A stretch of DNA of 64,000 bases from Nitrospinota bacterium (lineage in GTDB: Bacteria; Nitrospinota_A; UBA7883; JACRGQ01), in NCBI GenBank assembly GCA_016217735.1, contig JACRGQ010000013.1, positions 10,428 through 74,427 on the forward strand. Direction: 5' to 3'. Shown piece after piece: positions 1,408 through 29,495 of this stretch (position 1 is the first letter of the stretch; each line of letters opens with the position of its first letter). The notes beneath the pieces are model-generated. The model did not search any database. It was not told the DNA's origin and saw only the letters and a program-made list of their open reading frames with translations. The position numbers were made by a program, and so were the translations under genes.

Positions 1408-2490
1408 CTACAGCCAGCGCCTGAACAGCAAAAACAGCTTGGAGGCGATGGCCTGAAACCAAGGCGTCTCCTTAAGCGATTCCACCGTCACGGCTTTAGA
1501 GCTGTCAAAGCCGCGTAGCAGTTCCGCTTCCAGCAGGCGGCGGTTTTCCGGATGGGTGACGACGACATCCGCCTCCAGATCGTGCAGCAGCGAGCGGTAG
1601 TTCAGGTTGGTCGATCCCAGGCTTGCCCAATCGTCTATCACCTGCACTTTGGCGTGATAGAAGGAGGGGAGGTACTCGTAAATCTTCACCCCCGCGTTCA
1701 GCAGGCCCAGAAAATAGGTCGAGGCGAGCCACGGCATGAAAAACACGTCGGAGTTTTTGGGCACCATGATCCGCACGTCCACCCCGCGCCGCGCCGCATC
1801 GCACAGCGCGCGCACCAGGCCCAGCCGCGGCACGAAGTAGGCGCTGGCCAGCCATATCCGCTGCGTGGCGTTGCGCGATTGCTGAAGCAGGAGTTTGTAA
1901 TTCCGCCGCCGTTTCAGCAGCGTGTCGTTCAGGCGTATCCATTTTCCCTTTTGGTACGGCATCCGCCGGCGAAGCGCGGACGGCCGCGCAAGCTGCCTCC
2001 AGCGGGCGGCCCCCAGCCAGCATTTTGCAAAAGCCTGATCGAGGAGCGCGATCCATTTCCCCTCCACGCGGATGCCGTAATCCGTCCAATCGTTGTGCGC
2101 GATGTTCATGCTTCCCACATACGCCGTGCGCGAATCGAAGACCCAGCTCTTCCGGTGATTGCGCCGGTTGAGGCTGCGCGCGAACGCGAAAACGCTCCAC
2201 CAGCGCACCGGATGGTACACCTTTACGCCGACCGCCGTGCCGCTGAACCGGGCCGTCAACCCTTCCGCCGTTTGGAGGCAGCCGACGCCGTCCAGCAACA
2301 CCCGCACCGCCACGCCCCGTTCCGCCGCCCGGCGCAGCTCTTCCGCGATGCGGTTGCCGAGTTCGTCCATCTCGAAGATGTACGCCTCAACGTCGATGGT
2401 TTTTTCGGCCAGCGGTATCTCGCGGATGATGTCGGCGTAAAAGTCGCGGCTGCTGAAATAGATTTTTTCCGAATCCCAATGCGCCATCAC
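1408..2490 (-). CDS. Phospholipase D-family protein, cardiolipin synthase-like (two HKD motifs)
   Basis: HRKSWVFD and HAKVQVIDDWASLGSTNLN match two HxKx4D motifs; 360 aa. Confidence 0.8.
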   Translation of the reverse strand: MMAHWDSEKIYFSSRDFYADIIREIPLAEKTIDVEAYIFEMDELGNRIAEELRRAAERGVAVRVLLDGVGCLQTAEGLTARFSGTAVGVKVYHPVRWWSVFAFARSLNRRNHRKSWVFDSRTAYVGSMNIAHNDWTDYGIRVEGKWIALLDQAFAKCWLGAARWRQLARPSALRRRMPYQKGKWIRLNDTLLKRRRNYKLLLQQSRNATQRIWLASAYFVPRLGLVRALCDAARRGVDVRIMVPKNSDVFFMPWLASTYFLGLLNAGVKIYEYLPSFYHAKVQVIDDWASLGSTNLNYRSLLHDLEADVVVTHPENRRLLEAELLRGFDSSKAVTVESLKETPWFQAIASKLFLLFRRWL

Positions 2491-2532
2491 CGCATTCTAT
2501 CCCGGATTACTCCCCGCGTCGCCGTTCCCTTC

Positions 2533-2684
2533 CCGGTGGGTACACAATTGGGGAGGCGCGGAAAGATTTTTCACTCCGCGCCGGATATGGCCTATAGGCC
2601 ACATTGTGTACATCATGCCGCAAGGCATGAGCCCTCCATTGGCGCCAATGCGCCAACGTACCCATTAAAATGGGTACCCACCGG
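2533..2684. repeat. Structured intergenic element, family 2, copy X (GGTGGGTACACAATTG ... GTACCCACCGGG with several internal hairpins)
   Basis: Outer inverted repeat CCGGTGGGTAC / GTACCCACCGG. Internal palindromes ggcctataggcc, catgccgcaaggcatg, ttggcgccaatgcgccaa, tacccattaaaatgggta. Related copy at 21682-21775. Confidence 0.5.
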
Positions 2685-2759
2685 GAACGGCTTAGGTGGG
2701 TATGGACTTCGTTTGGCGTATCGGCGTGCGCCGCCGGTATCGGGCGTTTGGCGCGGGCC

Positions 2760-3677
2760 TTACTTCCAGACTGCGGTGATCGGGAAGGATTTTGCGTCCT
2801 CGCGCCCCATATCCCCCAGTTGAAAATTGTCTTCCACCGTGCGGAGCAGGTTGTAGTGGTCATAGACCGTGTCATCCGTCGTTCCCGCCCGGATCATGGA
2901 GCCGAGGAAAACGGTATAGACCGGGCTGTTGCCGGTTTTGCTTTCATCGAACGTCACCACCACCAGCGTCTTTGCCAACTCCGGCCGGGCGAGAAGCGGC
3001 TCCAAAAAACCTTTCAGCCAATTCGACGCATACGCTATGGAGGTGTCGTGTCCGTCGTTATCCATGTTGGGCACGAACAGCGAATAGCTGGGCAGGGGAA
3101 AAGGCAGGTTCGAGGCATCGGCTACATGTTGCAAGCAGCGCGGCCCGCGCGTGATGGGAGTGTAGGAGAGGAACGGGGCGTGTTTCCGCCCGTAGCGGCC
3201 CCGGTAGTCGCCAGTGAAGCAATTCGCCGGACCGCCCGGATAGTCTTCGGCGAATTGAGCCCAGCCAAGGCCCTTTGCCTCCAGGAGGTCGGCGATGGAG
3301 GAGACGTCCAGATTTTTTTGTGCGTTGCTGGTCGCGCCGAACGTCGATCCGCCCGTCAACGCAAGATAGTTTGGATAGGAGGGATGCCCCACGCCGTGAT
3401 AGTTGGCGAGGTATGCGCCCCGCCGCGCCAACTCCTTCATGTAGGGGTCTTGCAGGACGTCCGCGGCGTCCTGATTTTCAAGAATAATGATAAACACCTG
3501 GTCGAATTTGCGGCCACCGGGCCAATCAGCCGCGGCTTGGGCCGGAGTGGCGCTCGATGATTGTCCGGCGTTGGCCGCGCCGTTCGCCGGTTTGCCGGCA
3601 TGGCTTTGGGGCGCGGCGGTCAAAAGCGCGGCCACGAACGCCGCGCCGAAGAGCGAAGCGGAAACGGTTTTATTCAT
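2760..3677 (-). CDS. Secreted phosphoesterase-family protein (phospholipase C / acid phosphatase family)
   Basis: Signal peptide MNKTVSASLFGAAFVAALLTAAPQSHA. Conserved ILENQD, YPNYLALTGGS and VTFDE blocks typical of the phosphoesterase family. Confidence 0.7.
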   Translation of the reverse strand: MNKTVSASLFGAAFVAALLTAAPQSHAGKPANGAANAGQSSSATPAQAAADWPGGRKFDQVFIIILENQDAADVLQDPYMKELARRGAYLANYHGVGHPSYPNYLALTGGSTFGATSNAQKNLDVSSIADLLEAKGLGWAQFAEDYPGGPANCFTGDYRGRYGRKHAPFLSYTPITRGPRCLQHVADASNLPFPLPSYSLFVPNMDNDGHDTSIAYASNWLKGFLEPLLARPELAKTLVVVTFDESKTGNSPVYTVFLGSMIRAGTTDDTVYDHYNLLRTVEDNFQLGDMGREDAKSFPITAVWK

Positions 3678-8387: not shown

Positions 8388-8894
8388 ATGGACAAGGACG
8401 GCACACGCATTGAAATGAAGGTCGAGGGACTCACGCTCGACCCGGTGACCAATATGCCGATCATCATCCTCAAGGATATCGAGGGGCGGCGCACGCTCCC
8501 CATCTGGGTCGGCATTTTCGAGGCGAACGCCATCGCCCTCGAAATGGAGAAGATCAACACGCCGCGTCCCATGACGCACGACCTCATCCGGAACATCCTC
8601 GACGGCATCGACGCCAAGGTGAAATACGTCTGCGTGAACGACCTGCGCGATAACACCTTTTACGCCGAAATAGGCCTGATCCTGCACGGTATGGACGTGA
8701 AGATCGATTCCCGCCCGTCCGACGCGATAGCCGTGGCGCTGCGGATGAAAGCGCCGATCATGGTGGCGCTGAAAGTGGTGGAGGAGGCCCGCAGCTTCGA
8801 TGTGCGGCCCGAAAACCAGATAGGCGAAAACGATCAGTGGAAGGGATGGCTGGACAACATCAAGCCGTCCGATTTTGGCAACATCGACCAGTAG
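8388..8894 (+). CDS. Bifunctional nuclease (BFN/DUF151) domain protein
   Basis: LPIWVGIFEANAIALEM...RPMTHDL block typical of PF02577. Confidence 0.7.
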   Translation: MDKDGTRIEMKVEGLTLDPVTNMPIIILKDIEGRRTLPIWVGIFEANAIALEMEKINTPRPMTHDLIRNILDGIDAKVKYVCVNDLRDNTFYAEIGLILHGMDVKIDSRPSDAIAVALRMKAPIMVALKVVEEARSFDVRPENQIGENDQWKGWLDNIKPSDFGNIDQ

Positions 8895-8931: not shown

Positions 8932-9291
8932 ATGGCGGGAGTGAAAACGTTATTAGCCATTGCCGTTGCTCTGTCTTGCATTGGGGGGGATGCGGCGGCC
9001 GGCGTGATGGCGCAATGCGTCGACGACGCATCCCGTTTTTGCTCGAATGTGAAACAGAAAAATGTGTATACCTGTTTGCGAAAACATGCGTCCCAGCTCT
9101 CCTTCGGCTGTGCTGATGCGATGGGGCAGGGGGCCGGCGGTCCATCCGGCGCTTCCTGTCAAAATGATGCGTTGCGGCTCTGCAAATCCGGCAAACTGAA
9201 TAAGGGGACACGGCGGTGCCTTGAGCGGAATTTCGACCAACTCACCCCCAATTGCCAGGCCTATTTTTACCATCTGGGATGGGTTCGCTGA
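8932..9291 (+). CDS. Small secreted cysteine-rich protein with two tandem four-Cys repeats
   Basis: Signal peptide MAGVKTLLAIAVALSCIGG; repeats C-x7-C-x10-C-x11-C and C-x7-C-x11-C-x11-C. Confidence 0.5.
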   Translation: MAGVKTLLAIAVALSCIGGDAAAGVMAQCVDDASRFCSNVKQKNVYTCLRKHASQLSFGCADAMGQGAGGPSGASCQNDALRLCKSGKLNKGTRRCLERNFDQLTPNCQAYFYHLGWVR

Positions 9292-9319
9292 ATCGGATGG
9301 TTTCGGGAAGGGTTGAACT

Positions 9320-12300
9320 TTGAAACACGAGGACTTCGTACACCTCCACCTGCACAGCGAATACTCGCTGCTGGACGGGGCGATACGCTTCGACAACCTC
9401 CTTAAAAAAGCCGAGGAGTTCAAGATGCCCGCCGTGGCCGTCACCGACCACGGCAACCTCTTCGGGGCCATCGAGTTTTACCAAAAAGGGATGAAAAGCC
9501 CCGTCAAGCCGATCGTCGGCTGTGAAATCTACATCACCGGCGGCAGCCGGCACGACCGCGGCGGCGTGGCGGGGGGCGACGGTGAAAACGATCCCAACAC
9601 CTATCACCTCATTCTGCTCATCCAAAACCTCAAGGGTTACCGCAACCTCTGCAAGATAGCCTCCGCCGCCTACACGGAAGGGTTCTACTACAAGCCGCGC
9701 ATCGACAAGGAGTACCTGGCGCAACACAACGAGGGGCTGATCGCCCTCACCGCCTGCATTAAAGGCGAAGTGCCGCGCAAGATACTCAAAGGGGACGACG
9801 CCGCCACGGAAAAGGCGCTCGGCTTTTACAAAGACGTTTTCGGCGACCGGCTTTATCTGGAACTGCAAAACCACGGCATCCCCGAACAGCGCAAGGTGAA
9901 CACCGCGCTCATCGAGATGTCGAAAAAGCACAGCCTGAAGCTGGTGGCCACCAACGACTGCCACTACATGGAGCAGAGCCACTGGGAGGCGCACGACGCC
10001 ATGCTCTGCATCGGCACCGGCAAGATGATCAGCGATACCAACCGGATGCGCTACAGCGCCCACGAGTTCTACTTCAAATCGCCCGACGAGATGCGGATGC
10101 TTTTCAAGGAAGTGCCGGAGGCGATCACCAACACCCGCGAAGTGGCCGACCGTTGCAACCTCGATCTCAAGCTGGGGGAATATCACCTGCCGGCCTATAC
10201 CGTCCCCTCCGAGGAACCGCCGCAGCAGTTCATGGAAAGTCTCGTGGACCACAACCTCACCCTGCGGCTGGAGGAAAGCCGTAAGCGGGGGGACGTCATC
10301 GGCGAAGAACAGGAAAAAGAGTACCGCGAACGGATGCGGATGGAGCTGGCGGTCATCAAGAAAATGAACTTCGCCGGCTACTTCCTCATCGTCTGGGATT
10401 TCGTGAACTACGCGAAGACCCAGAACATCCCCGTCGGGCCCGGCCGCGGTTCCGCCGCCGGCTCGCTGGTGGCCTGGACGCTTGGCATCACCGACCTCGA
10501 CCCCATCAAGTACGGCCTTCTCTTTGAACGGTTCCTGAATCCCGACCGCATATCGATGCCGGATATCGATATCGACTTCTGCATGAACCGGCGGGGCGAG
10601 GTGATCAAATACGTCACCGACAAATACGGCGCGAAAAACGTGGGGCAGATCATCACCTTCGGCACCATGAAGGCCCGCGCCGTCATCCGCGATGTGGGGC
10701 GCGTGATGGGCGTCCCCTACGGCGAGGTGGACGGCATCGCCAAGCTGGTGCCGGAAGAGCTGAAAATGACGCTCGCCAAGGCCATCGAGATGGAGCCGAA
10801 GCTGGCCGACATGGAAAAGAAAGACCCGCAGGTGAAAAAGCTGCTGGAGATCGCCAAGGTGCTGGAAGGCATCTCGCGCCACGCCAGCGTACACGCCGCG
10901 GGCGTGGTTATCGCGCCGGGCGATCTCACCGACTTTGTCCCGCTTTACAAAACGAACAAGGACGAAGTGGTGACCCAGTTCACCATGAAATATATCGAGG
11001 AACTGGGGCTGCTCAAGATGGACTTTCTCGGCCTGCGCACGCTCACCGTCATCGATTGGACGGTGAAAAGCATACGGAAGGGCAAGGCCGCCGCGTTCGA
11101 TATCAGAGCGATACCGATGGATGACCCGGCGACGTTTAAACTGCTGCAGGATGCGCGCACGCTGGGGGTCTTCCAGCTCGAATCGAGCGGCATGCGCGAC
11201 CTGATGCGCAAGCTCAAGCCCGAGCACTTCACCGACATTATCGCGCTTGTCGCCCTTTTCCGTCCCGGCCCGCTCAACTCCGGCATGGCCGACAGCTTTA
11301 TCCACCGCAGGCACGGCACCGAGAAGGTGGAGAACATCGTGCCGCAACTGGGCGAAATACTGAAAGAAACCCACGGCGTCATGGTTTATCAGGAACAGGT
11401 CATGAAGATCGCCAACGAACTGGCCGGCTTCACCATGGCGCAGGCCGATACGCTGCGCAAGGCAATGGGGAAAAAAGACGCCAAAACGATGGAGAAGCTG
11501 CGCCACGATTTCGTGGATGGGTGCAAGAAAAACAAAATCGCCGAGGAGAAGGCCGCCACCATCTTCGGGCAGATACAGGAATTCGCCGAATACGCCTTCA
11601 ATAAATCCCATTCCGCGGCCTACGCGCTGGTGAGCTATCAGACCGCGTACCTCAAGACGAACTACCCCGAGGAGTACATGGCCTCGCTGCTCACCTCCGA
11701 ACGGGACAGCACCGACAAAGTGGTGCTCTACCTCAACGAGTGCCGCGATCTCGGCATACCGGTACTCCCGCCCGACATCAATGAATCGGAGGTGGACTTC
11801 GGCGCGCTCGCGGGAAAAATCGTTTTCGGCCTGGCCGCCGTGAAGGGGGTCGGCGTCGGCGCCGTATCCGAGATCATCCGCGCGCGGCAGGAGGGAGCGC
11901 CGTTCGCGTCGCTTACCGAGTTCGCCCGGCGCATCGACGGCAAGCAGGTGAACCGGCGCGTGTTCGAGGCGCTCATCAAGTGCGGCGCGTTCGACCGGCT
12001 GAACAAAAACCGCGCCGCGCTTTTCGATTCGCTGGACAGCGTGACGGCGGAGGCCGCCAAAGACCGCGAAGAGACCCAGATGGGACAATCCAACATGTTC
12101 GCCGCCATCGAGACCGCCGCCGACCGCGAGAAGCGGCTCATCAGGGATTTGCCGGACTGGCCGCAGGCCGAACGGTTGCAGCACGAAAAAGAGGCGCTCG
12201 GCTTTTATATAACCGGCCATCCGATGGAGCGCTACCTGCAAGACCAGAAGCGGCTTGCCACCCATCAGGCGGGACAGTTGGCCGACACCGTCAATAAACA

Positions 12301-12796
12301 GGAAGTGCGGTTATGCGGCGTGGTGAGCGCCCTGCGCACCCAATTGACCAAGAAAAAAGAGAAGATGGCCTACGTTACGCTGGAAGACATGAGCGGCAGC
12401 GCGACCATGCTCGTCTGGCCCAATACGCTGGCCGAGACGTTCCAGTACCTCGAATCGAACGAGGCGCTTTTCATCAAGGGGAAAATCGACCGTGACGAGA
12501 ACGATGTCAAGGTCATCGCGGACGAGATCATGCCGATAAAGGCCGCCAAGGAAAAATTCACCAATGCCATCCACCTTAATCTGCAAGTGGTGGGGTTGGA
12601 AGACACCGTGCTGAATGACCTCAAGCAGCTCGCCGCGCGCCACCGGGGGAACAGCAAGCTGGTGCTGCACTTCACCTTTCCGGATAGGAAACGGATGCAG
12701 GTGAACGCCTCCGACCGTTACAAGGTCGCAGCCAACGAATCGCTGCTGGCGGAATTTGAAAAGATCCTCGGCCCCTCCTCCGTCTACTGCTCCTAA
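9320..12796 (+). CDS. dnaE: DNA polymerase III alpha subunit
   Basis: 1158 aa; PHP domain start HLHLHSEYSLLDGA; polymerase core; OB-fold C-terminus. Confidence 0.97.
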   Translation: MKHEDFVHLHLHSEYSLLDGAIRFDNLLKKAEEFKMPAVAVTDHGNLFGAIEFYQKGMKSPVKPIVGCEIYITGGSRHDRGGVAGGDGENDPNTYHLILLIQNLKGYRNLCKIASAAYTEGFYYKPRIDKEYLAQHNEGLIALTACIKGEVPRKILKGDDAATEKALGFYKDVFGDRLYLELQNHGIPEQRKVNTALIEMSKKHSLKLVATNDCHYMEQSHWEAHDAMLCIGTGKMISDTNRMRYSAHEFYFKSPDEMRMLFKEVPEAITNTREVADRCNLDLKLGEYHLPAYTVPSEEPPQQFMESLVDHNLTLRLEESRKRGDVIGEEQEKEYRERMRMELAVIKKMNFAGYFLIVWDFVNYAKTQNIPVGPGRGSAAGSLVAWTLGITDLDPIKYGLLFERFLNPDRISMPDIDIDFCMNRRGEVIKYVTDKYGAKNVGQIITFGTMKARAVIRDVGRVMGVPYGEVDGIAKLVPEELKMTLAKAIEMEPKLADMEKKDPQVKKLLEIAKVLEGISRHASVHAAGVVIAPGDLTDFVPLYKTNKDEVVTQFTMKYIEELGLLKMDFLGLRTLTVIDWTVKSIRKGKAAAFDIRAIPMDDPATFKLLQDARTLGVFQLESSGMRDLMRKLKPEHFTDIIALVALFRPGPLNSGMADSFIHRRHGTEKVENIVPQLGEILKETHGVMVYQEQVMKIANELAGFTMAQADTLRKAMGKKDAKTMEKLRHDFVDGCKKNKIAEEKAATIFGQIQEFAEYAFNKSHSAAYALVSYQTAYLKTNYPEEYMASLLTSERDSTDKVVLYLNECRDLGIPVLPPDINESEVDFGALAGKIVFGLAAVKGVGVGAVSEIIRARQEGAPFASLTEFARRIDGKQVNRRVFEALIKCGAFDRLNKNRAALFDSLDSVTAEAAKDREETQMGQSNMFAAIETAADREKRLIRDLPDWPQAERLQHEKEALGFYITGHPMERYLQDQKRLATHQAGQLADTVNKQEVRLCGVVSALRTQLTKKKEKMAYVTLEDMSGSATMLVWPNTLAETFQYLESNEALFIKGKIDRDENDVKVIADEIMPIKAAKEKFTNAIHLNLQVVGLEDTVLNDLKQLAARHRGNSKLVLHFTFPDRKRMQVNASDRYKVAANESLLAEFEKILGPSSVYCS

Positions 12797-12881
12797 CCCG
12801 CCCGCTCCCGTGCTCGTCCCCGTTCTTGTCCTTGTCCTTGTCCCCGCTCCCCCTTCTTCTCTTTATTTCCCGATGCAATAT

Positions 12882-12911
12882 TTGACAACATCTTTCTAAT
12901 TAACGCATAAT
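12882..12911 (+). promoter_or_regulatory. Sigma70-like promoter (TTGACA-N18-CATAAT) driving the low-GC three-gene operon
   Basis: Perfect -35 TTGACA and near-consensus -10 CATAAT about 45 nt upstream of the GGAAGGGG RBS and ATG. Confidence 0.4.
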
Positions 12912-12956
12912 TAATCAGTAACATTATTTGTTGCTAGGCTTGGAAGGGGAAGATTG

Positions 12957-13388
12957 ATGTTTCAAACGGAAGTCAAGTTAGTTGACGTGTTTATTTCCTG
13001 CTTTCAGTCATGTTCTTCACTGAGGGCGACTCACAATATAGTCCGGGAGTTTGACTATGTTTCAGGGCGAACGGATATTTTATCTCTAAATACAGAAAAT
13101 GAAATAATCGCATTTGAGGCTAAGTTGACCAATTGGCGGAAAGCAATTCATCAAGCTTGGCGGAATACCAGCTTTGCCAATCAGGTGTATGTTGTGTTGC
13201 CTCGCACACGTTCTAGTGGTGCAATGAAAAACAAAGCTGAGTTTGATGAGCGTGGTGTGGGACTCTGTGTGGTTGATGATGGTGGTGGTGTGGAGGTTGT
13301 CATACCTTGTTCACGCAACAAACCATTAATTCCGTGGCTTAACCGCAAAGCGATGGACGCACTGGTTGGTAATGCCTGTTTCCACTAA
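12957..13388 (+). CDS. Small PD-(D/E)xK nuclease-fold-like protein (Hjc/restriction-endonuclease-like core)
   Basis: …GRTDILSLNTENEIIAFEAKLT… gives D…ExK spaced as in PD-(D/E)xK cores; about 143 aa; low GC; 23-nt overlap with the next gene. Confidence 0.5.
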   Translation: MFQTEVKLVDVFISCFQSCSSLRATHNIVREFDYVSGRTDILSLNTENEIIAFEAKLTNWRKAIHQAWRNTSFANQVYVVLPRTRSSGAMKNKAEFDERGVGLCVVDDGGGVEVVIPCSRNKPLIPWLNRKAMDALVGNACFH

Positions 13389-14229
13389 CACCCCCGCCCA
13401 ATTAGCAAAAAGTATTTGCGCCGATAAAGGCCTGACTTTCATTGGCGAGAAGGGGACGGGTGCTTTTAAGAATACGTTTCTCGTAAAAAAAAATAATGAT
13501 GAGCTGGCATTAAAGCTCATCATTCGCGGTGCAGATAATGCACGAATTGAACGTGAAATTGCGGCACTGAAGGTGTGTAATCACCCTAACATCTGTCGTT
13601 TGTTAGAAACGGGCATGATTAATGACGGTATGAAGCCAGTAATCTATCTGATTGAGGAGTTTCTGCCAGGAGGAACGCTAACGGATCATCTCTCAAACGG
13701 CTGTCTCCAACCGCCTGAAATTATTCAACTCGCGATTAGCCTCACTGAAGCTATTGCGCATTTAGCTGGACACCGTATTACTCACCGCGATATAAAGCCT
13801 GATAACATTATGTTTCGCGCTGATGGGATGCCGGTGCTTGTCGACCTCGGGATTGCTAGGCATCTTGAAGCAAGCTCTCTAACCATGACATTTCTTATGC
13901 ATGGGCCAGGCACACCTCTTTATGCTCCACCTGAGCAACTGTTGAATGACAAGCCCTTGATTGACTGGCGAAGCGATCAGTTTTCATTAGGCGTTACCCT
14001 GTCCTATGCCGCATTTGGCAGGCACCCTTTTGCCGAGAATGACTCTTTAGAGCGTACCGTGGAGCGTGTTGCCAACCGATTATCATCCTCGGCTGATTTT
14101 AAAAAATTAGCACAAGTGCATGGGCTTGATGCATTAATAAAAATGGTCGAACCTTGGCCTGTGAAACGTTTTGCACGGCCGGAAATATTGATGCAGGCAT
14201 GGCGCGATAGCGGAGGGGGGAGGACATGA
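13366..14229 (+). CDS. Hanks-type Ser/Thr protein kinase, kinase domain only
   Basis: Gly-loop GEKGTGAFK, Lys in LALKLI, HRDIKPDN catalytic loop, DLG (DFG variant), GTPLYAPPE activation segment; 287 aa. Confidence 0.85.
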   Translation: MVMPVSTNTPAQLAKSICADKGLTFIGEKGTGAFKNTFLVKKNNDELALKLIIRGADNARIEREIAALKVCNHPNICRLLETGMINDGMKPVIYLIEEFLPGGTLTDHLSNGCLQPPEIIQLAISLTEAIAHLAGHRITHRDIKPDNIMFRADGMPVLVDLGIARHLEASSLTMTFLMHGPGTPLYAPPEQLLNDKPLIDWRSDQFSLGVTLSYAAFGRHPFAENDSLERTVERVANRLSSSADFKKLAQVHGLDALIKMVEPWPVKRFARPEILMQAWRDSGGGRT

Positions 14230-15398
14230 GCACTTACCATCAGATGGGGCACAACTCAGAGGGTATGATCGTTGAGCCACAGTTGGGGCAATTTGCGGGC
14301 GCAATTCTTAGCCCGGTAAATTATTCGCTCGATAATACGGTTGCACAATGCGCTAGATTTCGAGACGTCAAGGCGGACATCGATATAATATTCGACCCAC
14401 AGCTTTACGTTCCCTCTGCTGACCGCGGTAAACTTCAGTATTGGCCTCATAAGCCCAACGATATTGATACTGCCGATCAGAGTTCTCTTGAATGGTGGAG
14501 AGTTGCAATAGCCAAGATCATTGATGTCTGCAAATTCTTCAAGCCCGCTGGGTTGTGTAGCCCGGCTTTTTTACCCAGAACTTTTGATGATGTGTACTAC
14601 AATTTGCTTGTTGATATAGGTGATGTTACATCGCAACAAATAGATGCTGATGAAGAGCTTAAATTAGGAACTCGTTCCTTTCTTACGGCACTGGTCAATT
14701 TAAATGACCTAGGAAGGAGTCAACGCTACTTGCAAGTCGGTTCAATTCTTTCGCGTTACAAAGGAGGGGATATTTATCTCGTATTTGTTGATGAAGAAAT
14801 TCCCCGCAACGAACGATCCGACTCAGGTGCCCTTGAAGGTGCGGCGCGACTGATACGGGTGTTAACTCAATCCGGGTTCCGCGTTACTGTTGGGTTTACT
14901 TCCTCAGAAATGGTGCTGTGGAAAGCTGCTGGTGCAACAAATGTTGCGACCGGAAAATATTTTAATCTGCGCCGTTTTACAAGGGAGCGCTGGGAGGACG
15001 AAGAATCAAGTGGCGGCAGAAATATCGGCTACTGGTTTGAACCCGCACTACTGGCATTTCTCAGAGAAGCCGACATACGCCGTTATAGGCAGGAATTTGC
15101 GATTGACCCGTCTCATGCTGCAAACCCATTTAGCAATTCAATTATTGGAAAATTAGATGCTGCCGAGCGGGAAGCGTGGGTAGCGGATTCATGGCGGCAA
15201 TTCTTGCATTGGTTTGCCCATTGCGAGACCGTCATTGGAAATGATTTTGCTAAATGTTCCGAGATGGTTTCGAATGCCGCTGACACATGGCATGCTGTAA
15301 AAGGTGCCAAGCTGATATTTGAAGAAGAGCGGAACAATGGAGATTGGGTCAGAGCTTGGAAGATTGTTCTTAATGAATTAGAGCGACGCCCCGATTAG
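14226..15398 (+). CDS. Hypothetical 390-aa protein, third gene of the kinase operon
   Basis: ATGA overlap with the kinase gene stop; low GC; no recognisable motifs. Confidence 0.6.
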   Translation: MSTYHQMGHNSEGMIVEPQLGQFAGAILSPVNYSLDNTVAQCARFRDVKADIDIIFDPQLYVPSADRGKLQYWPHKPNDIDTADQSSLEWWRVAIAKIIDVCKFFKPAGLCSPAFLPRTFDDVYYNLLVDIGDVTSQQIDADEELKLGTRSFLTALVNLNDLGRSQRYLQVGSILSRYKGGDIYLVFVDEEIPRNERSDSGALEGAARLIRVLTQSGFRVTVGFTSSEMVLWKAAGATNVATGKYFNLRRFTRERWEDEESSGGRNIGYWFEPALLAFLREADIRRYRQEFAIDPSHAANPFSNSIIGKLDAAEREAWVADSWRQFLHWFAHCETVIGNDFAKCSEMVSNAADTWHAVKGAKLIFEEERNNGDWVRAWKIVLNELERRPD

Positions 15399-15448
15399 AC
15401 CAAATTGTCATTTGCGAGGATCAGGGCTTGCTTTGTGGCATTTCATCA

Positions 15449-15715
15449 TCAAGCGGCACTTTCCCGCTCCACGTTCCAGCCGGGGAACAGGATCACGGCT
15501 GGATGGCATTTCAGCGCACGCGCAATCGTCTTTGCCCGCTCCACTCCCAGCTTTATCCTTCCGTTCTCGATGCCGGAAATGGTGGATTGCGGTATGCCGG
15601 TGGCCTTTGCCAAGTCGGCTTGGCTCATCTCCTGAAGCTCGCGCAATACGCGCACCGATTCCCCGGCGCTCATTTCCACGCGCGCTTTGGCCGGGGCAAA
15701 TCCTTTTTTCGCCAT
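15449..15715 (-). CDS. XRE-family HTH antitoxin (HigA-like)
   Basis: MSQADLAKATGIPQSTISGIENGR is an HTH_XRE signature; immediately downstream of a RelE-like toxin on the same strand. Confidence 0.75.
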   Translation of the reverse strand: MAKKGFAPAKARVEMSAGESVRVLRELQEMSQADLAKATGIPQSTISGIENGRIKLGVERAKTIARALKCHPAVILFPGWNVERESAA

Positions 15716-15719
15716 GACA

Positions 15720-15998
15720 TCACCTCCTGTAATCGTGGGGCGTAACCGTAACTACATACACCGACACTTCGGCTTCCTTTACTTCGTACACAACGCGGTA
15801 TTGCAGATTAAGCCTGCTGGAGCGGCAACCGCGCCACTCACCGCGTAACGCCTCATCGTGAAAGCCCTTAATGAGCCGCAAGCCATGAATACCTGAGTAG
15901 CGGACAACGTCTTTCCATTTTTCGTAACGTTTCAGCAGCTCATCGGGAAGCCGGTCAAGCTGTTTTTGCGCCTCGCGGCTTTCGTAAATACGCCACAT
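15720..15998 (-). CDS. RelE/ParE-superfamily toxin (HigB-like, toxin-first arrangement)
   Basis: 92 aa, C-terminal YRVVYEVKEAEVSVYVVTVTPHDY typical of RelE/ParE. Confidence 0.7.
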   Translation of the reverse strand: MWRIYESREAQKQLDRLPDELLKRYEKWKDVVRYSGIHGLRLIKGFHDEALRGEWRGCRSSRLNLQYRVVYEVKEAEVSVYVVTVTPHDYRR

Positions 15999-16026: not shown

Positions 16027-16239
16027 ATGTCTAGTTTGGAATTTCCAATTCCTCCACCCCCGTTTACCGCGGGGGAATCAAGAGCTGTTGGGCAAATTGG
16101 AAGAAATGGAGCGCTGGTCGCATTTGGAGGTTTTGGCGGAGGTGAAGGTATTGGCGTTTTTGGACGAAATGGAGGAAGTTTTTTCGCGAAAACGAAAAAA
16201 CCGATATTCCGTAACATTAAGATGCAGATTGCCAGATAG
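16027..16239 (+). CDS. Possible small Gly-rich peptide ORF in an AT-rich spacer (speculative)
   Basis: 70-aa ORF with GRNGALVAFGGFGGGEGIGVFGRNGGSFF; weak RBS; could be spurious. Confidence 0.15.
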   Translation: MSSLEFPIPPPPFTAGESRAVGQIGRNGALVAFGGFGGGEGIGVFGRNGGSFFAKTKKPIFRNIKMQIAR

Positions 16240-16271
16240 TTTCGCCCCGGGTGGATGGCTGCGCGGCGGTG

Positions 16272-17807
16272 TTATTTTTTGGCGGGCATCCGCACACGCT
16301 GGCTGAACCAGGTAAGGCCGATGAGGAAGAGGAAGATGACGCCGGTGAGGAAGAAGACGTCGTCCGTCGCCAGCATCACCGCCTGTCTATCCACTATGCG
16401 CGAGACCGTCTGGAGGGCCGCCTCGAATCCCATCCCCATCTCCTCCATTTTATCCCGCATGAAGTTCCACGCCGGGTTGTAGGGGGAGGTGTTCTCGGCC
16501 AGCATCGTCCGGTGGTGGCCGATACGGCCATCCCACAGTGTTATCACCAGCGAGGTGCCGAAGCTGCCGCCGAGTATCCTTACGAAGTTCGTCATTCCGG
16601 CGGCGCTGGCTACCTTGTCGTGCGGTATGTGGGAGAGCGAGATGGTGGTCATCGGCACGAAGAAGCAGGCCATTCCCAGCCCTTGCATCAGGCGGGGAAG
16701 CGCAACGCCGCCGAAGGTGATGTCGGTGTTGAACGACGCCTGCCAAAAGCTGGTGAGCGCGAAAACGGAGAAGGCGAAAGTTGCCACCCACCGCAGGTCG
16801 GCGCGGTGGAGGTTGGCCGCCACGATGGGGGTGAGGATGAGCGTAAAGACGCCGATGGGGGCGCTGGCGAGTCCCGCCCACAGGGCGGTGTAGCCCATCT
16901 GCGTCTGCAGCCAGAGCGGTATCAGCACCGCGTTGCCGAAAAAGGCCATGTAGCCGAGGCTGAGGGCGGCGGTCGCCACGGTGTAGTTCCGGTTCCTGAA
17001 AAGCGTGAGGTCGACGATCGGGTGTTCCTCCATCAGTTCCCATGCGATGAAAAAGACGAAGCCCACGAACGCCGTCACCGCCAGCGCGGTGATCTTGGGG
17101 GAATCGAACCAGTCCTCCTGCTGCCCCATGTCGAAGCAGAGCTGAAGGCTTCCCACCCAGATGGCCAGCAGCGCCAGCCCCACCTTGTCCACTGGCTGTT
17201 TCACGATGGCGGTTTCGCGCTCCTTCAGCACGTTCCATGTGATGTAGGCGCAAGCGAAGCCGACCGGCACGTTGATGTAGAAAATCCACTCCCAGCCGTG
17301 GTTGTCGGTGATCCACCCCCCCATGATCGGGCCGATGATCGGCGCGACGACGGTGGTGATGGACCAAAAGCCGAGCGCCATCCCTTTTTTCTCGGGGGGG
17401 TAACATTTCAGCAGCAGCGCCTGCGAGATGGGGATCATCGGCCCCGCCACGGCCCCTTGCAGGGCGCGGAAGTTCACCAGCGTTTCAAAGGTGGGGGCCA
17501 GCCCGCAGAGTATCGAGGCGAAGCTGAAAAGGAGCGTACAGGTGACGAAAAGCCGCACCTCGCCGAACCGGCGCGCCAGCCAGCCGGAGAGCGGCACCAC
17601 GATGGCGGTGGCCACGGCGTAGGAGGTGATGATCCACGTTCCCTGATTGGGGCTGACCGAAAGATCGCCCGCGATGTGCGGGATGGAAACGTTGGCGATG
17701 GTTGTGTCCAGCACGTTCATGAATGTCGCCAGCGCCAGCGATACGGTGGCGATGGCAAGCGGCGCGCCGGTGAGGTAGGGGTGTCGCGGAGCCGCCTGCG
17801 GCCGCAC
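16272..17807 (-). CDS. emrB: MFS drug/H+ antiporter, DHA2 (EmrB/QacA) family, 14 TM
   Basis: 511 aa with conserved MFS motifs; gene pair with an upstream HlyD-family gene. Confidence 0.85.
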   Translation of the reverse strand: MRPQAAPRHPYLTGAPLAIATVSLALATFMNVLDTTIANVSIPHIAGDLSVSPNQGTWIITSYAVATAIVVPLSGWLARRFGEVRLFVTCTLLFSFASILCGLAPTFETLVNFRALQGAVAGPMIPISQALLLKCYPPEKKGMALGFWSITTVVAPIIGPIMGGWITDNHGWEWIFYINVPVGFACAYITWNVLKERETAIVKQPVDKVGLALLAIWVGSLQLCFDMGQQEDWFDSPKITALAVTAFVGFVFFIAWELMEEHPIVDLTLFRNRNYTVATAALSLGYMAFFGNAVLIPLWLQTQMGYTALWAGLASAPIGVFTLILTPIVAANLHRADLRWVATFAFSVFALTSFWQASFNTDITFGGVALPRLMQGLGMACFFVPMTTISLSHIPHDKVASAAGMTNFVRILGGSFGTSLVITLWDGRIGHHRTMLAENTSPYNPAWNFMRDKMEEMGMGFEAALQTVSRIVDRQAVMLATDDVFFLTGVIFLFLIGLTWFSQRVRMPAKK

Positions 17808-17809
17808 GG

Positions 17810-18979
17810 TCAGCGCGCCTCCGCCACCGGGGCCATTTTCAGGTTTTTGGCGATGATCGCGGAGATGAGTTCGTCGGCGCCCGCATCCTCGGCGTCATAC
17901 ACGGTGGTGGCGAGTTCGTGCTTGGCGGTTCCGGGCTGAAGCGGGCCGCCGTTGCCGTGAATATCGACGGTGGCGGCGAGCGAAAGCCCCACCACGAGGG
18001 GATGCTGCTTAAGCTCTTCCGGCATGAGCGATATTTTCACCGGTACGCGCTGCACCACCTTGATCCAGTTGCCGGTGGCGTTTTGCGCCGGAAGGACTGA
18101 AAAAACGGAGCCGGTTCCGGCGCCGATCCCCACCACCGTGCCGTGGAAGCGGACGCCGCGGCCGTACATGTCCGAAACGATTTCCACCGGCTGGCCGGCG
18201 CGCATCCGTTTGAGCTGGTTCTCCTTGAAGTTCGCCTCCACGCTCAGCGCGTCGACCGGCACCACCGCCATGAGCGGCTTGCCGGGGACGGCCCGTTCCC
18301 CCAGTTGCACGGCGCGCCGCGCCACATAGCCGCTCACCGGCGCCGCCAGATTCATCCGTTGCAAGGCCACATACGCTTCGCGCACCTTTGTCTTCGCCGT
18401 CGCCACATGCGGGTTGTCCTCGGCGCGGTTCCCCGCGGCGGTGATTTGTGCTTCGGCCAGCTCGTGCCGCGCGAGGCGGACGGCGTTTTGGGCATTCTCG
18501 TATTCCAGGCGGGCGTGGTCGTACGCCTCCTGCGTGACGGCGCGGTCGCCGAACAGTTTTTCGCGCCGTTCAAAATCGGTTTTCGTTTTTTGCAGGTCGG
18601 CCTCCCGCATGGCAAGGCGCGCCAGCCGGGTTTTCACCCCTTCCAGCGTATTTCCCGCCTGGCGCACCGCCACCGCCAGTTCGCTCTCCGCTTTTTCCAG
18701 GGCGATTTTCGCGTCGGTGCCGTCCATCCGCACCAGCGTATCCCCCTGTTTCACGAAGTCGGTGTTATCGGCCATGATGGCCACCACCGTGCCGCCGGCC
18801 TGGGGGGTGATGGAGACGAGGTTGCCGGCGACGTAGGCGTTGTCGGTATATTCGTAAAACCGTCCGCTCGTCCACCACCAGCCGCCCCATGCCGCGCCGG
18901 CGATGGCGAAGACCGCGGCGATCCTGAGCATGACCGTTATCCGTCCGCCGTTGGCGGGCCGCTGTTTGGTTTCTTCCAT
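17810..18979 (-). CDS. emrA: HlyD-family membrane fusion protein (EmrA-like)
   Basis: 389 aa, N-terminal TM, coiled coil, C-terminal beta-barrel domain; precedes emrB. Confidence 0.85.
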   Translation of the reverse strand: MEETKQRPANGGRITVMLRIAAVFAIAGAAWGGWWWTSGRFYEYTDNAYVAGNLVSITPQAGGTVVAIMADNTDFVKQGDTLVRMDGTDAKIALEKAESELAVAVRQAGNTLEGVKTRLARLAMREADLQKTKTDFERREKLFGDRAVTQEAYDHARLEYENAQNAVRLARHELAEAQITAAGNRAEDNPHVATAKTKVREAYVALQRMNLAAPVSGYVARRAVQLGERAVPGKPLMAVVPVDALSVEANFKENQLKRMRAGQPVEIVSDMYGRGVRFHGTVVGIGAGTGSVFSVLPAQNATGNWIKVVQRVPVKISLMPEELKQHPLVVGLSLAATVDIHGNGGPLQPGTAKHELATTVYDAEDAGADELISAIIAKNLKMAPVAEAR

Positions 18980-26607: not shown

Positions 26608-28266
26608 ATGGGAACCCGCGTAGTCATCGACCCGATCACCAGAATCGAAGGCCACCTCCGCATCGAAGTGGAAATTGAAAACGGCAAGGTCAAGGATGCG
26701 TGGAGCAGCGGCACCATGTTCCGCGGCTTCGAAATCTTCATGCGCGACCGCGATCCGCGCGACGCGTGGTACATTACCCAGCGCGTCTGCGGCGTCTGCA
26801 CCACCGTGCACGCGCTCACCTCGGTGCTCTGCGTGGAAAACGCCATCGGCATCGAGGTGCCGGATAACGCGCGCCTTATCCGCAACCTCATCATGGGAAG
26901 CCAGTATCTGCACGATCACATCGTCCACTTCTATCACCTCCACGCGCTGGATTGGGTGGACGTGGTCAACGCCCTGAAAGCCGACCCGAAGAAGACAGCC
27001 GAACTTGCCCACGCCATCAATCCGCATTCGCAACGGAGCGGGGAGGGGGACTTTCAAGCGGTGCAGGACAGGGTCAAGGCGTTTGTGAACGCGGGCCAGC
27101 TCGGCCCCTTTGATAACGCCTACTGGGGGCACCCGGCCTACAGGCTGCCGCCGGAAGCGGATCTGATGGCGGTGAGCCACTACCTCGACGCCCTGACGCT
27201 GCAGGCGAAGGCGGCCCGGATGCACGCCGTCTTCGGCGGAAAAAACCCGCACCCGCAAAGCTATGTGGTGGGCGGGATGACCTGCGTACAGGATCTGACC
27301 CCGGATCGGCTGGCCGAATTCATCTATCTCATGAAAGAGACTGTGGATTTCGCCCAGAACGTCTACATCCCCGACCTGCTGGCGGTGGCGCCCTTCTACA
27401 AGGAATGGGCCGGTATCGGCGGCGGGGTGGGGAACTACCTTGCCTACGGCATGCTGCCCGAAAACACCAAGGACGACCCGAACAACCTTTTCTTCCCGCG
27501 CGGCGTGGTGATGAACAGGGATTTGGGAAATCCCCAAAAGCTGGATCAGGCGAAGATCATGGAGCATGTGGCGCACTCTTTCTACGAAGGGGCTGCGCCG
27601 CGCCACCCCTCGGTGGGGGAAACCAAGCCGTACTTCACCGGCATCAACACCGCCGACAAGGACGGCAAGTACAGTTGGCTCAAGAGTCCGCGCTACGACG
27701 GCAAGGCGATGGAGGTCGGCCCGCTGGCCCGGCTGGTCGTCGGCTACGCCGCCGGCCACAAGCAGATCAAGGCGGCCGTGGACGGCACGCTGAAACAGCT
27801 CGGCCTTCCCGCCACGATCCTTTTCTCAACGCTTGGACGGACCGCCGCCCGCGGCATCGAGACCAAGGTGATGGCGGACAAGATGCAGCAGTGGGTGGAC
27901 GAACTGCTGGCGAATATCAAGCGGGGCGATCTCAGCACCTTCGCCAGCTATAAGATGCCCGACAGGGCGAGCGGCTTTGGCATGACCGAAGCGCCCCGCG
28001 GCGCCCTCGGCCACTGGATCGATATCAGGGGGGGGCTGATACACAACTACCAGCTTGTGGTGCCGACCACATGGAACGGTTCGCCGCGCGACGCCACGGG
28101 TCAGCGCGGGGCCTTCGAGGAAGCTCTCGTCGGCACGCCGGTGCATGATCCGAAGAAACCGCTGGAGATACTCCGCACCATCCATTCGTTCGATCCGTGC
28201 CTGGCCTGCTCGGTGCATGTGATAGACCCGAAGACCAACGAAGTGCATGTAACAAAGGCGGCGTAA
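26608..28266 (+). CDS. [NiFe] hydrogenase large subunit
   Basis: RIEGH, RVCGVCTTVH and C-terminal DPCLACSVH Ni-binding motifs, with a 15-aa C-terminal extension for protease processing. Confidence 0.95.
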   Translation: MGTRVVIDPITRIEGHLRIEVEIENGKVKDAWSSGTMFRGFEIFMRDRDPRDAWYITQRVCGVCTTVHALTSVLCVENAIGIEVPDNARLIRNLIMGSQYLHDHIVHFYHLHALDWVDVVNALKADPKKTAELAHAINPHSQRSGEGDFQAVQDRVKAFVNAGQLGPFDNAYWGHPAYRLPPEADLMAVSHYLDALTLQAKAARMHAVFGGKNPHPQSYVVGGMTCVQDLTPDRLAEFIYLMKETVDFAQNVYIPDLLAVAPFYKEWAGIGGGVGNYLAYGMLPENTKDDPNNLFFPRGVVMNRDLGNPQKLDQAKIMEHVAHSFYEGAAPRHPSVGETKPYFTGINTADKDGKYSWLKSPRYDGKAMEVGPLARLVVGYAAGHKQIKAAVDGTLKQLGLPATILFSTLGRTAARGIETKVMADKMQQWVDELLANIKRGDLSTFASYKMPDRASGFGMTEAPRGALGHWIDIRGGLIHNYQLVVPTTWNGSPRDATGQRGAFEEALVGTPVHDPKKPLEILRTIHSFDPCLACSVHVIDPKTNEVHVTKAA

Positions 28267-28291
28267 CCGCCAAAGCCGATACGGGGGCCAT

Positions 28292-28990: not shown

Positions 28991-29495
28991 CATCGCAACC
29001 CCCATCACGGTGCTCGGCATCGGCAACATCCTGATGCGGGACGATGGCCTCGGCATACGGGCGCTGGAAGCCCTGCGGCGGGATTTTTCGTTTCCGGGCA
29101 ATGTAACGCTCATCGACGGCGGCACCACCATCTTTCACAACATGGAGATATTCACCGCCGCGGAAAAAATGATCGTGTTCGACGCCGTGAAGCTGGACGG
29201 CCCGCCGGGAACCGTCTACGCCTTCAACTCGGATGAATACCGGGTGAAGCTCCCGCGCAAAGCCACCTCGCACGACGTGGGTGTGCTCAATACCCTTTCG
29301 ATAATGGAACTGGTGGGCAAAAAGCCGCCGGAAGTGATTATCATCGGCGTGCAGCCGAAGGAATACGACACATGGAGCGAGGAACTTACCCCCGAAGTGG
29401 CCGCCGCCATTCCCGAAATGGTCCGCCGCGCCGTCGAACAGCTTGCGAAGTGGGGGATGAATATCATGCAAAACAAGGGTAAATTTGCATTGTAA
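28980..29495 (+). CDS. Hydrogenase maturation endopeptidase (HyaD/HupD family)
   Basis: VLGIGNILMRDDGLGIRALEAL is a typical HycI/HyaD start; 171 aa. Confidence 0.85.
   Translation: MGNNIATPITVLGIGNILMRDDGLGIRALEALRRDFSFPGNVTLIDGGTTIFHNMEIFTAAEKMIVFDAVKLDGPPGTVYAFNSDEYRVKLPRKATSHDVGVLNTLSIMELVGKKPPEVIIIGVQPKEYDTWSEELTPEVAAAIPEMVRRAVEQLAKWGMNIMQNKGKFAL

Follow-up and report, generated by a model that had tools for sequence, protein, structure and literature searches.

Positions 12957–15398 of the analysed window, a 64,000-nt stretch of a Nitrospinota bacterium MAG (contig JACRGQ010000013.1), appear to form a self-contained mobile cassette. This is most likely a conflict system, directed against phages or mobile elements, that has not been described before; confidence in this reading is modest. 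The cassette is a trio of plus-strand genes, g1, g2, and g3, flanked by dnaE on one side and EmrAB-like pump genes (an MFS/HlyD efflux pair) on the other. We infer the defence role from circumstantial genomic context. Generic traits of defence systems were present, namely a patchy distribution of the horizontal-transfer type and frequent defence or mobile-element neighbours. The predicted enzyme competence of g1, g2, and g3 was also counted in favour of a conflict system. The features are listed in Table 1.

Table 1. Positions of the cassette genes and nearby features in the window.
Feature	Position	Strand	Remark
Sigma70-like promoter, TTGACA (12882–12887)-N18-CATAAT (12906–12911)	12882..12911	+	11/12 match
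Two TAATTAA boxes, 12897–12903 and 12908–12914	12897..12914	+	read from sequence
g1 RBS GGAAGGGGAAG	12942..12952	+	read from sequence; ends 4 nt before ATG 12957
g1, PD-(D/E)xK-fold nuclease-like protein, 143 aa	12957..13388	+	alternative TTG start 12954
g2, bare Hanks-type Ser/Thr protein kinase	13366..14229	+	287 aa from TTG
g3, 390 aa, TGT-fold barrel and helical domain	14226..15398	+	ATGA overlap with g2
RelE/HigB-type toxin–antitoxin (TA) pair adjoining the trio	15449–15998	minus	profile matches

The three tightly overlapping plus-strand reading frames of the preliminary description were all present. The ATG of g1 at 12957 is the start of the exactly matching NCBI protein P0121. The g2 frame contains an alternative ATG at 13372, which would give 285 aa; the 23-nt overlap claimed for g1 and g2 stands if TTG 13366 is the start and becomes 17 nt if ATG 13372 is used. 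The ATGA overlap of g2 and g3 was found at 14226–14229, preceded by a strong RBS (GGAGGGGGGAGGA), and the strong RBS described before the first gene was also seen. Transcription of the trio is predicted to start at its own promoter, and translation of its genes to be coupled. No intrinsic terminator was found downstream of g3.

Between the promoter-like site and the g1 ATG are 45 nt. The near-consensus site described earlier is present, but it carries little statistical weight: four promoter-like sites were found in the region against 4.3 expected from shuffles, and no family-wide enrichment was detected upstream of g1 (4/67, with 3/67 in the control regions downstream). The −10 element and the adjoining AT-rich boxes were kept in the Gallionella copies; L006, one of these copies, has the −10 element in common with the window. 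The TAATTAA boxes are 11 bp apart and overlap the promoter spacer and the −10 element. Equivalent boxes (CTAATTAGC and similar) were aligned in L006, L007, L008, and L010. TAATTA occurred in 8/70 upstream regions versus 1/69 controls, only within the subclade of the window. The box pair is possibly an operator.

Positions 12880–15400 had a GC content of 46.1%, the lowest of any 2.5-kb stretch within the 64 kb; the value was 59.5% in dnaE, 62.9% in the emrB-like gene, and 59.2% over the window as a whole. The low-GC dip proposed earlier was confirmed, but not its size, which was 46% versus about 60% rather than 40–45% versus 65%. Across loci, the GC content of the trio was more than 3 points below that of the flanks in 41/64 and above it in 2/64. 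The suggested horizontal acquisition of the block was borne out by GC composition both in the window and across loci. No convincing direct or inverted repeats were found at the island borders, where only a 13/15 near-repeat (12912 and 16205) was seen, and no tRNA genes were found in the window.

The core fold of g1 was alpha-beta-beta-beta-alpha-beta, as in the PD-(D/E)xK nuclease superfamily. The D…ExK residues noticed earlier were conserved family-wide: D40, E54, and K56, together with E5 and Q66, were invariant in 39 sequences. By its fold and invariant catalytic residues, g1 is a PD-(D/E)xK nuclease with predicted activity. It has the restriction-endonuclease fold, its structural neighbours include the repair nuclease NucS, and no specificity or modification-reading domain was recognisable in its 143 aa. 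The g1 family comprised 613 matches, and no other architecture was seen among the g1 matches listed. No family match was obtained in Pfam, NCBIfam, PADLOC, or PHROGs, including for the 39 aligned members; a marginal match to PDC-S11 (E 0.004) appeared in 5/39. Searches of PDB sequences with the g1 and g3 family profiles gave chance-level matches only, and CutA (E 0.003) was disregarded.

The kinase g2 matched Pfam PF00069 (Pkinase) over residues 30–279 of 287, with an E-value of 1.5e-35 and 123.4 bits against a cutoff of 31.7. K50, E64, H140-R141-D142, N147, D160-x-G162, GPGTP..PE, and DQF were at least 90% conserved across 70 loci; GPGTP..PE and DQF are substrate-binding-lobe motifs of true protein kinases. 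The window copy has DLG at D160-L-G162, while the family consensus is DFG. This Pkinase match and the conserved catalytic residues agree with the bare, competent-looking kinase first described, and g2 appears to be a domain-minimal, catalytically intact Hanks kinase. The best PADLOC models were mad6 (E 4.6e-43) and PD-T4-6 (E 1.6e-33), both at the kinase-domain level only. The NCBIfam model BREX_PglW (BREX type 2) scored 56.4 bits, below its cutoff of 990. A natural fusion of the kinase with g3 was suspected from a 'gap' of −1170 and rejected, the gap being an artefact.

The third protein had been described as having no recognisable motif, but a confident (beta/alpha)8 TIM barrel was predicted at about residues 1–280, followed by an all-helical C-terminal domain (about 281–390). 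The nearest solved folds were tRNA/DNA guanine transglycosylases (TGT, QTRT2, and DpdA). The predicted fold of g3 is confidently TGT-type, and the link is by fold only. Identity to TGT was 6–9% with a Foldseek TM of about 0.5. No match to Pfam TGT (PF01702) was found at E ≤ 1 for the window protein and 10 divergent members, and when the g3 profile was aligned by hhalign with Tgt of E. coli (identical to PDB 10fa_A), the probability was 0.2%. The zinc site CxCxxC...H was absent from g3, with no conserved Cys/His cluster; C111 was the sole nearly invariant Cys. The invariant acidic residues were D57, E196, and D283. The catalytic Asp pair of Zymomonas mobilis TGT is D102 and D280; by a strand-order reading, g3 would have Ser at the D102 position (C111-S112-P113). 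The fold score of Cap10 against g3 was lower than that of TGT and within the generic TIM-barrel range. The g3 family comprised 788 matches and is thus comparable in size to the g1 family, which fits their linkage. No family match was obtained in Pfam, NCBIfam, PADLOC, or PHROGs, including for 60 aligned and 10 divergent members; one of the 60 gave a marginal match to Upx (E 0.009).

The linkage of the three genes was investigated in 80 kept genome loci. The order g1-g2-g3 of the window was found in 71/80, and each of the three genes was covered to at least 85% in 66 loci. L034 was considered as a locus without g1 and g2; both are present there in a permuted order (g3-g1-g2). Most of the other loci end too near g3 to tell, and L037 and L038 were among those left aside. 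Three-gene linkage was near-universal where DNA was available. The pairwise-distance matrices of the g1, g2, and g3 proteins were correlated (r = 0.78–0.82, Mantel p ≤ 0.001), and mean identity was 0.44 for each protein, indicating an equal evolutionary rate. The three genes co-evolve as a unit.

The trio is rare, occurring in about 100 of 185,579 species representatives, and is spread over at least 15 bacterial phyla and the haloarchaea. The g3 proteins of the Nitrospinae MAG of the window and a Gallionella genome were 82% identical. When the 472 ORFs flanking 71 loci were clustered, no cluster spanning loci had more than six members, and the members of the largest lay at variable positions. 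No recurrent fourth gene was found in bacteria; in the haloarchaeal clade, the trio is accompanied by a metallophosphatase. The trio is patchy in distribution and horizontally transferred.

Synteny across unrelated genomes, which the preliminary description had proposed to check, was kept, often beside integrase, transposon, prophage, RM, Abi, or TA genes. The trio of L001 lies in a prophage-like gene neighbourhood. That of L003 is found with Tn7-like TniB/TniQ and an integrase; that of L004 with EcoRII-N, HATPase/HNH, BrxR, and a ubiquitin-like Bub system; and that of L086 with AbiTii, MmeI, GIY-YIG, and BrnTA. A type IIG RM-like gene lies near the L093 trio, and putAbiC lies directly 3' of the L088 trio. 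The contexts of L087 and L088 are mostly housekeeping. Among nearest-neighbour families, Phage_integrase was the commonest (7/127); AbiEi, AbiD, AriA/GajA-type ATPases, RM methylases, and many ordinary metabolic genes were also present. Defence and mobile-element neighbours were frequent, an association that is qualitative and given with no formal enrichment statistic. Homology to housekeeping families or a core-genome context had been named as grounds against a defence cassette; g1 and g3 proved to be non-housekeeping and the context non-core.

The HigBA-like module described beside the trio was identified as a RelE/StbE toxin (15720–15998; TIGR02385, 35.0 bits against a cutoff of 27.9) and an HTH_3 antitoxin (E 6.8e-16), with the toxin gene upstream of the antitoxin. 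The pair is real, but it does not belong to the system: it does not recur beside the trio elsewhere, so that a role as fourth component was rejected, and at 56% GC it is near the host in composition.

In the proposed mechanism, g1, g2, and g3 would act jointly, probably as a complex. The kinase would serve as the switch and, as it carries no sensor domain, would depend on its partners. The g3 protein may bind a ligand, either a nucleobase or a nucleic acid, at a conserved site on top of the barrel, either as a sensor or as an enzyme breaking or exchanging N-glycosidic bonds. The nuclease g1 would be the effector, for example cutting DNA marked or depurinated by g3. Phosphorylation would gate activity, and the haloarchaeal metallophosphatase could reset it. 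Since the three proteins evolve at an equal rate, no component resembles a fast-evolving sensor of phage proteins. A more specific version, a new type of immune system, is doubtful: the Hanks kinase would gate a TGT-fold enzyme that attacks N-glycosidic bonds by base excision or exchange, its target being either the DNA of the invader or tRNA of the host or phage, and g1 would cleave the resulting lesions.

A miniature Dpd-type modification–restriction system is unlikely. There, g3 would mark the host DNA as self by exchanging one of its bases (e.g., guanine for 7-deazaguanine made by the queuosine pathway of the host), DNA left unmodified would be cut by g1, and the kinase would provide ATP-dependent control like the ATPase DpdB. 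The restriction-endonuclease fold of g1 is consistent with this, as is the requirement of DpdA for an ATPase partner in Dpd systems (PMC12839542). However, no queC/D/E, folE, dpdB, or dpdC was found in the annotated neighbourhoods, the most frequent nearest-neighbour Pfam families included no dpdB, dpdC, or 7-deazaguanine synthesis gene, and no neighbour was recurrent. The lack in g3 of the zinc site and of any TGT/DpdA sequence signal, the small g1 with no recognisable reading domain, and the true protein-kinase substrate-lobe motifs retained by g2 also argue against it.

It is improbable that the cassette is an addiction module that stabilises mobile elements in a TA-like manner, with toxicity from either the kinase, as for HipA, or the nuclease, neutralisation by the other proteins, and no dedicated anti-phage role. 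Only two matches were found in 72,556 plasmids, several copies stand alone among chromosomal housekeeping genes, and the three proteins, unlike labile antitoxins, are conserved to an equal degree and are predicted to be well-folded enzymes. These results weigh against the tight gene overlaps and own promoter, the association of the cassette with integrases, transposons, plasmids, and other TA pairs, and the precedent of kinase toxins (HipA; DS-6, PMC13092281).

A mobile cellular module for DNA/RNA maintenance or stress signalling, such as phosphorylation-regulated base excision by g3 with g1 as nuclease, is quite improbable. The N-glycosidic bond chemistry implied by the TGT fold, the structural likeness of g1 to NucS, the equal and unaccelerated rate of all three components, and some housekeeping contexts would fit such a role; extreme patchiness over many phyla and Archaea, the foreign low-GC composition, and the unconserved flanks do not. 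Phage enzymes resembling DpdA that modify phage DNA are known. Even so, a gene set serving the phage or mobile element itself, by DNA hypermodification or counter-defence, is very improbable: the Paludibaculum trio lies in a prophage-like neighbourhood, 3' of replication/recombination-type genes and 5' of a terminase gene, and two IMG/VR contigs have the trio, but these were the only confirmed loci in a scan of 2.9 million contigs, tblastn gave 0 matches in 50,697 sequenced phage genomes, neither g1 nor g3 has a PHROG family, and most copies, including that of the window, lie outside prophages.

If the cassette is a defence system, as preferred here, it would be a compact three-gene module with two unannotated families, one of them repurposing the guanine-transglycosylase fold, and eukaryotic-like kinase signalling would be tied to nucleic-acid base chemistry in prokaryotic immunity. 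The combination of a kinase with base chemistry is absent from PADLOC 2.0, Pfam, NCBIfam, and PHROGs. Were the more specific mechanism true, phosphorylation-controlled nucleobase chemistry would serve as an antiviral effector from bacteria to haloarchaea. With its spread over phyla and its haloarchaeal phosphatase, the trio lends itself to studying how kinases without further domains are connected to their partners, and a new nucleic-acid-modifying or base-excising activity might be obtained. Even in a non-defensive role, two uncharacterised families of about 600–800 sequences each would gain a fold and a clear set of functional partners.

The trio had not been recognised as a described system, and this was supported by the lack of a match to it in PADLOC, NCBIfam, Pfam, and PHROGs and of a published description in the searchable literature. 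TGT-fold enzymes are known in defence from Dpd (PMC12839542) and CBASS Cap10 (10.1101/2025.04.06.647259). Unlike Dpd, the trio lacks DpdB, DpdC, and nearby genes for deazaguanine synthesis, and g3 shows neither a zinc site nor sequence similarity to DpdA; Dpd has no Hanks kinase. The trio differs from type IV CBASS in the absence of a CD-NTase, a QueC-like Cap9, and a cyclic-nucleotide effector. Bacterial TGT (PF01702) is a housekeeping single gene with a zinc subdomain (CxCxxC...H), whereas g3 is a mobile-cassette gene with a helical domain instead. The BREX-related 'BRC' system with TGT and GNAT was rejected as a different gene set. Among DefensePredictor systems, also rejected, the kinases are only of the HipA type or nucleotide kinases.

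MADS is a multigene defence operon of eight genes with a kinase, and its authors' model requires MAD6, MAD7, and MAD8 (10.1101/2023.03.30.534895). Although mad6 was the best PADLOC match of g2, the alignment covered positions 60–269 of the 659-position model, NCBIfam MAD6 scored 94.5 bits (below the cutoff of 460), and g1 and g3 matched no mad model. MADS contains RM-like methylase and specificity genes, of which the trio has none, and it was rejected as a different gene set.

In CapK–CapS, KKP of Pf prophages, and TerY-P triads, immune or stress responses are gated by a kinase, with or without a phosphatase (PMC13373217, PMC11341870). The trio resembles them in this respect, its archaeal form having an added metallophosphatase. 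CapK–CapS seemed promising because a kinase and a small partner precede immune operons there; with CapK an anti-sigma-type (GHKL) kinase and CapS a STAS protein, it is not the system of the trio. Two kinases and a phosphatase make up KKP, and vWA and PP2C proteins are found in TerY-P triads. None of the three is known to have a PD-(D/E)xK or TGT-fold partner. Stk2 of Staphylococcus and PD-T4-6 of E. coli are kinase-based anti-phage systems, and the g2 match to PD-T4-6 models is confined to the kinase domain. Both are known as single-gene systems whose kinases have extra regions, and they lack the partners found here, whereas the kinase of the trio is domain-minimal and linked to the g1 and g3 families.

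All three open reading frames of the preliminary description (g1, a nuclease-like protein; g2, a Hanks kinase; and g3, a TGT-fold protein) exist in the window as it had described them. The cassette was flanked by DnaE and an MFS/HlyD efflux pair. The g1/g2 overlap was 23 or 17 nt, set by the choice of g2 start, and the window sequence showed an ATGA overlap between g2 and g3 and a strong RBS for g3 within the 3' end of g2. The GC content of 12880-15400 was 46.1%, the lowest of any 2.5-kb stretch in the 64-kb window, compared with 59.2% for the window, 59.5% for dnaE and 62.9% for the emrB-like gene. The reported GC dip was therefore present, but the contrast first given (40-45% against 65%) was too large. 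The original observation was confirmed with small numerical corrections of this kind.

Features of the cassette in the window and of two haloarchaeal cassettes (locus coordinates)
Feature	Position	Strand	Remark
g1	12957-13388	+	143 aa from ATG; TTG 3 nt further upstream
g2	13366-14229	+	287 aa from TTG; in-frame ATG at 13372 gives 285 aa
g3	14226-15398	+	390 aa
RelE/StbE toxin and HTH_3 antitoxin pair, HigBA order	15449-15998		minus strand; adjoins the trio
Promoter TTGACA-N18-CATAAT	12882-12911	+	11/12 match
RBS of g1	12942-12952	+	read in sequence
Haloarchaeal cassette L093 (Natribaculum breve plasmid CP095393.1)	6420-9887
Haloarchaeal cassette L094	3612-7018

Pfam, NCBIfam, PADLOC and PHROGs had no family for g1. 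The AlphaFold model of g1 was confident (pLDDT 89.8) and had an alpha-beta-beta-beta-alpha-beta restriction-endonuclease core. E5, D40, E54, K56 and Q66 were invariant in 39 homologues. The restriction-endonuclease-like fold proposed for g1 was supported by the modelled core and by invariant D40, E54 and K56.

g2 matched Pfam Pkinase with an E value of 1.5e-35 over residues 30-279 of 287, which leaves no additional domain, in agreement with the bare, apparently competent kinase described earlier. Residues K50, E64, HRD (140-142), N147, D160-x-G162, GPGTP..PE and DQF were at least 90% conserved among 70 family members. These catalytic and GPGTP..PE/DQF motifs indicate that g2 is a catalytically competent kinase of proteins, not of small molecules.

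g3 had no assignment in the family libraries scanned, including PADLOC and PHROGs, and had been described as lacking a recognisable motif. A fold could now be assigned, since a very confident model (pLDDT 91.4, pTM 0.92) predicted a TGT-type (beta/alpha)8 barrel and, C-terminal to it, a helical domain (about residues 281-390). In the fold comparison, generic barrels were found from 14.9 and CBASS Cap10 at 14.2; Foldseek, independently, ranked TGT first (E 2e-5, TM about 0.5). The 35 invariant residues gathered directly after the barrel strands, in the clusters S29-P30-N32, D57-Q59, P113, P193-R194-E196, W232/G236/A237 and G243/N247/R249/R250. In the predicted structure they lie on the face where TIM barrels classically have their catalytic site. 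Judged from the model, the tie between g3 and TGT is structural only. Identity was 6-9%, there was no Pfam TGT match, hhalign against E. coli Tgt gave a probability of 0.2%, and the zinc-binding Cys/His cluster of TGT was absent.

A set of 5.8 billion proteins contained 788 g3 homologues at E ≤ 1e-3; representatives at 50% clustering numbered 833, many of them fragmentary. The g1 profile matched 613 small proteins, and the 120 matches listed showed no other architecture. About 100 cassette loci were found in 185,579 species genomes, and 80 were kept. The bacterial hosts were Pseudomonadota, Acidobacteriota, Planctomycetota, Actinomycetota, Chloroflexota, Verrucomicrobiota, Bacteroidota, Ignavibacteria, Bacillota, Thermotogae, Spirochaetes, Armatimonadota, Gemmatimonadota and others; among Archaea, a haloarchaeal plasmid and a metagenome contig carried copies. 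The nearest relatives of the Nitrospinae copy were from Gallionella(ceae), with g3 77-82% identical. The g1-g2-g3 order was common to 71 of the 80 kept loci, and the trio is syntenic across unrelated genomes; of the other loci, most stop so near g3 that linkage cannot be judged. An apparent exception from an uncultured Terriglobales MAG (L034, 8660-11272) had the circularly permuted order g3-g1-g2 with the g1/g2 overlap kept, so the linkage survives rearrangement. Five loci (L027, L035, L037, L038 and L063) gave only a partial g2 match or no g1 match by tblastn; these cassettes may be decayed or interrupted, and L035 may be contig-limited.

The three genes co-evolve. All three were present at ≥ 85% coverage in 66 loci, where their pairwise-distance matrices correlated (r = 0.78-0.82, Mantel p ≤ 0.001) and mean identity was 0.44 for each of them. 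No recurrent fourth gene was found in bacteria: the largest cross-locus cluster among 472 flanking ORFs had six members at varying positions. In the haloarchaeal clade, a calcineurin-like metallophosphoesterase (228-229 aa, Pfam Metallophos) lay directly 3' of g3, and g1 was longer (224-230 aa) with an insertion. This phosphoesterase is a possible antagonist of the g2 kinase.

The GC content of the trio was lower than that of its flanks by more than 3 points in 41 of 64 loci and higher in only 2. The trio was not found in 50,697 phage genomes; the IMG/VR scan confirmed it on only 2 contigs, and 2 of 72,556 plasmids had it. Its neighbourhoods were varied: prophage-like genes in Paludibaculum; Tn7-like TniB/TniQ and an integrase in Chitiniphilus; EcoRII-N, HATPase/HNH, BrxR, a ubiquitin-like Bub system and a TA pair in Gallionellaceae; AbiTii, MmeI, GIY-YIG, BrnTA and a transposase in Gemmatimonas (L086); a 1379-aa type IIG RM-like gene upstream in Natribaculum; transposase fragments and a DNA methylase in L089; and mostly housekeeping genes with a RES-Xre TA pair in L087. 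Phage_integrase was the commonest Pfam family among nearest neighbours (7/127 ORFs), in which PADLOC found AbiEi, AbiD, AriA/GajA-type ATPases and RM methylases amid unrelated metabolic genes. The pattern is that of an autonomous accessory islet, often but not always in defence or mobile regions, and the association is qualitative. Abortive-infection-type genes directly abutted the trio in unrelated genomes: putAbiC (11122-12123) lay immediately downstream in L088, overlapping the 3' end of g3, and AbiTii (2222-3139) lay just upstream of g1 in L086.

The RelE/StbE-HTH_3 pair had been regarded as an associate of the trio. Its GC content was 56%, near the host level and unlike the 46% of the trio, and no such pair was found beside the trio in other loci. 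It was therefore rejected as part of the system and was probably acquired separately, in the same dnaE-emrAB intergenic hotspot. The earlier interpretation was supported in part: its structural and genomic predictions all held; this association did not; and a defence function of the trio stays putative.

The near-consensus sigma70 promoter and RBS upstream of g1 were present as claimed. The -10 element was conserved in the Gallionella copy, but the region held 4 promoter-like sites against 4.3 expected from shuffles, and strong sites upstream of g1 were not enriched across the family (4/67, against 3/67 in the downstream control). The promoter is therefore plausible, yet statistically nothing special. 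Two TAATTAA boxes 11 bp apart (12897-12914) overlapped the promoter spacer and -10 element. The same boxes, of the CTAATTAGC type and up to three in number with an 11-bp period, lay upstream of g1 in L006 (about 8640-8680), L007, L008 and L010. They were conserved in copies from Gallionella, Alphaproteobacteria and Chitiniphilus and not in other clades (8/70 loci against 1/69 controls), and they look like an operator travelling with the cassette. The trio had no obvious DNA-binding regulator, unless g1 binds DNA through its C-terminal helix-hairpin part.

A 15-nt near-repeat (12912-12926, TAATCAGTAACATTA; 16205-16219, TATTCCGTAACATTA; 13/15 identical) marked both edges of the low-GC block with the trio and TA pair; either an insertion scar or chance could account for it. 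A (TTGTCC)x3 hexamer repeat (12826-12843) in the CT-rich spacer just past the dnaE stop codon produced a spurious 68-aa minus-strand ORF with a DKDKDK run (12672-12878). The long antisense ORFs opposite dnaE (9242-12265, minus strand, 1007 aa) and the emrB-like gene (16251-17939, plus strand, 562 aa) are most likely high-GC artefacts, not genes. The second lowest-GC stretch (about 28250-31000, <50% in 2.5-kb windows) encoded a cytochrome b561-type hydrogenase subunit, a HycI hydrogenase maturation protease and a ClpP-like SDH-type protease, and was not obviously mobile.

The best-supported explanation was a mobile cassette, self-contained and serving conflict or defence, putatively of three enzymes acting together. 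As g2 has no sensor domain, its specificity must come from the two dedicated partners, g1 and g3, and translational coupling and co-evolution fit a putative complex. g3 would engage nucleic acid or a nucleobase, either sensing it or acting as an enzyme on N-glycosidic bonds. The nuclease effector would be g1, and the response would be gated by phosphorylation and reset by the archaeal phosphatase. Four rival readings had less support: a miniature system of modification and restriction resembling Dpd, an addiction module, a mobile module for repair or stress, and a function serving the element.

The trio was compared with known systems. It was without the DpdB, DpdC and deazaguanine genes of Dpd, and g3 was without the zinc site. 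MADS was rejected, since MAD7, MAD8 and RM genes were missing and g2 scored 94.5 bits on the MAD6 model against a cutoff of 460; on BREX PglW, g2 scored 56 bits against 990. The folds of CapK/CapS differed from those of the trio proteins, and type IV CBASS and the BREX-related BRC system were also judged not to be the trio. Full-text literature and accession searches found no published description of it. PADLOC models of PD-T4-6 matched the kinase domain of g2, so automated tools may call g2 PD-T4-6 and miss g1 and g3. The trio was rated as a multigene kinase-containing defence-type cassette, with a putative role in defence and two unannotated families, one of which has a repurposed TGT fold.
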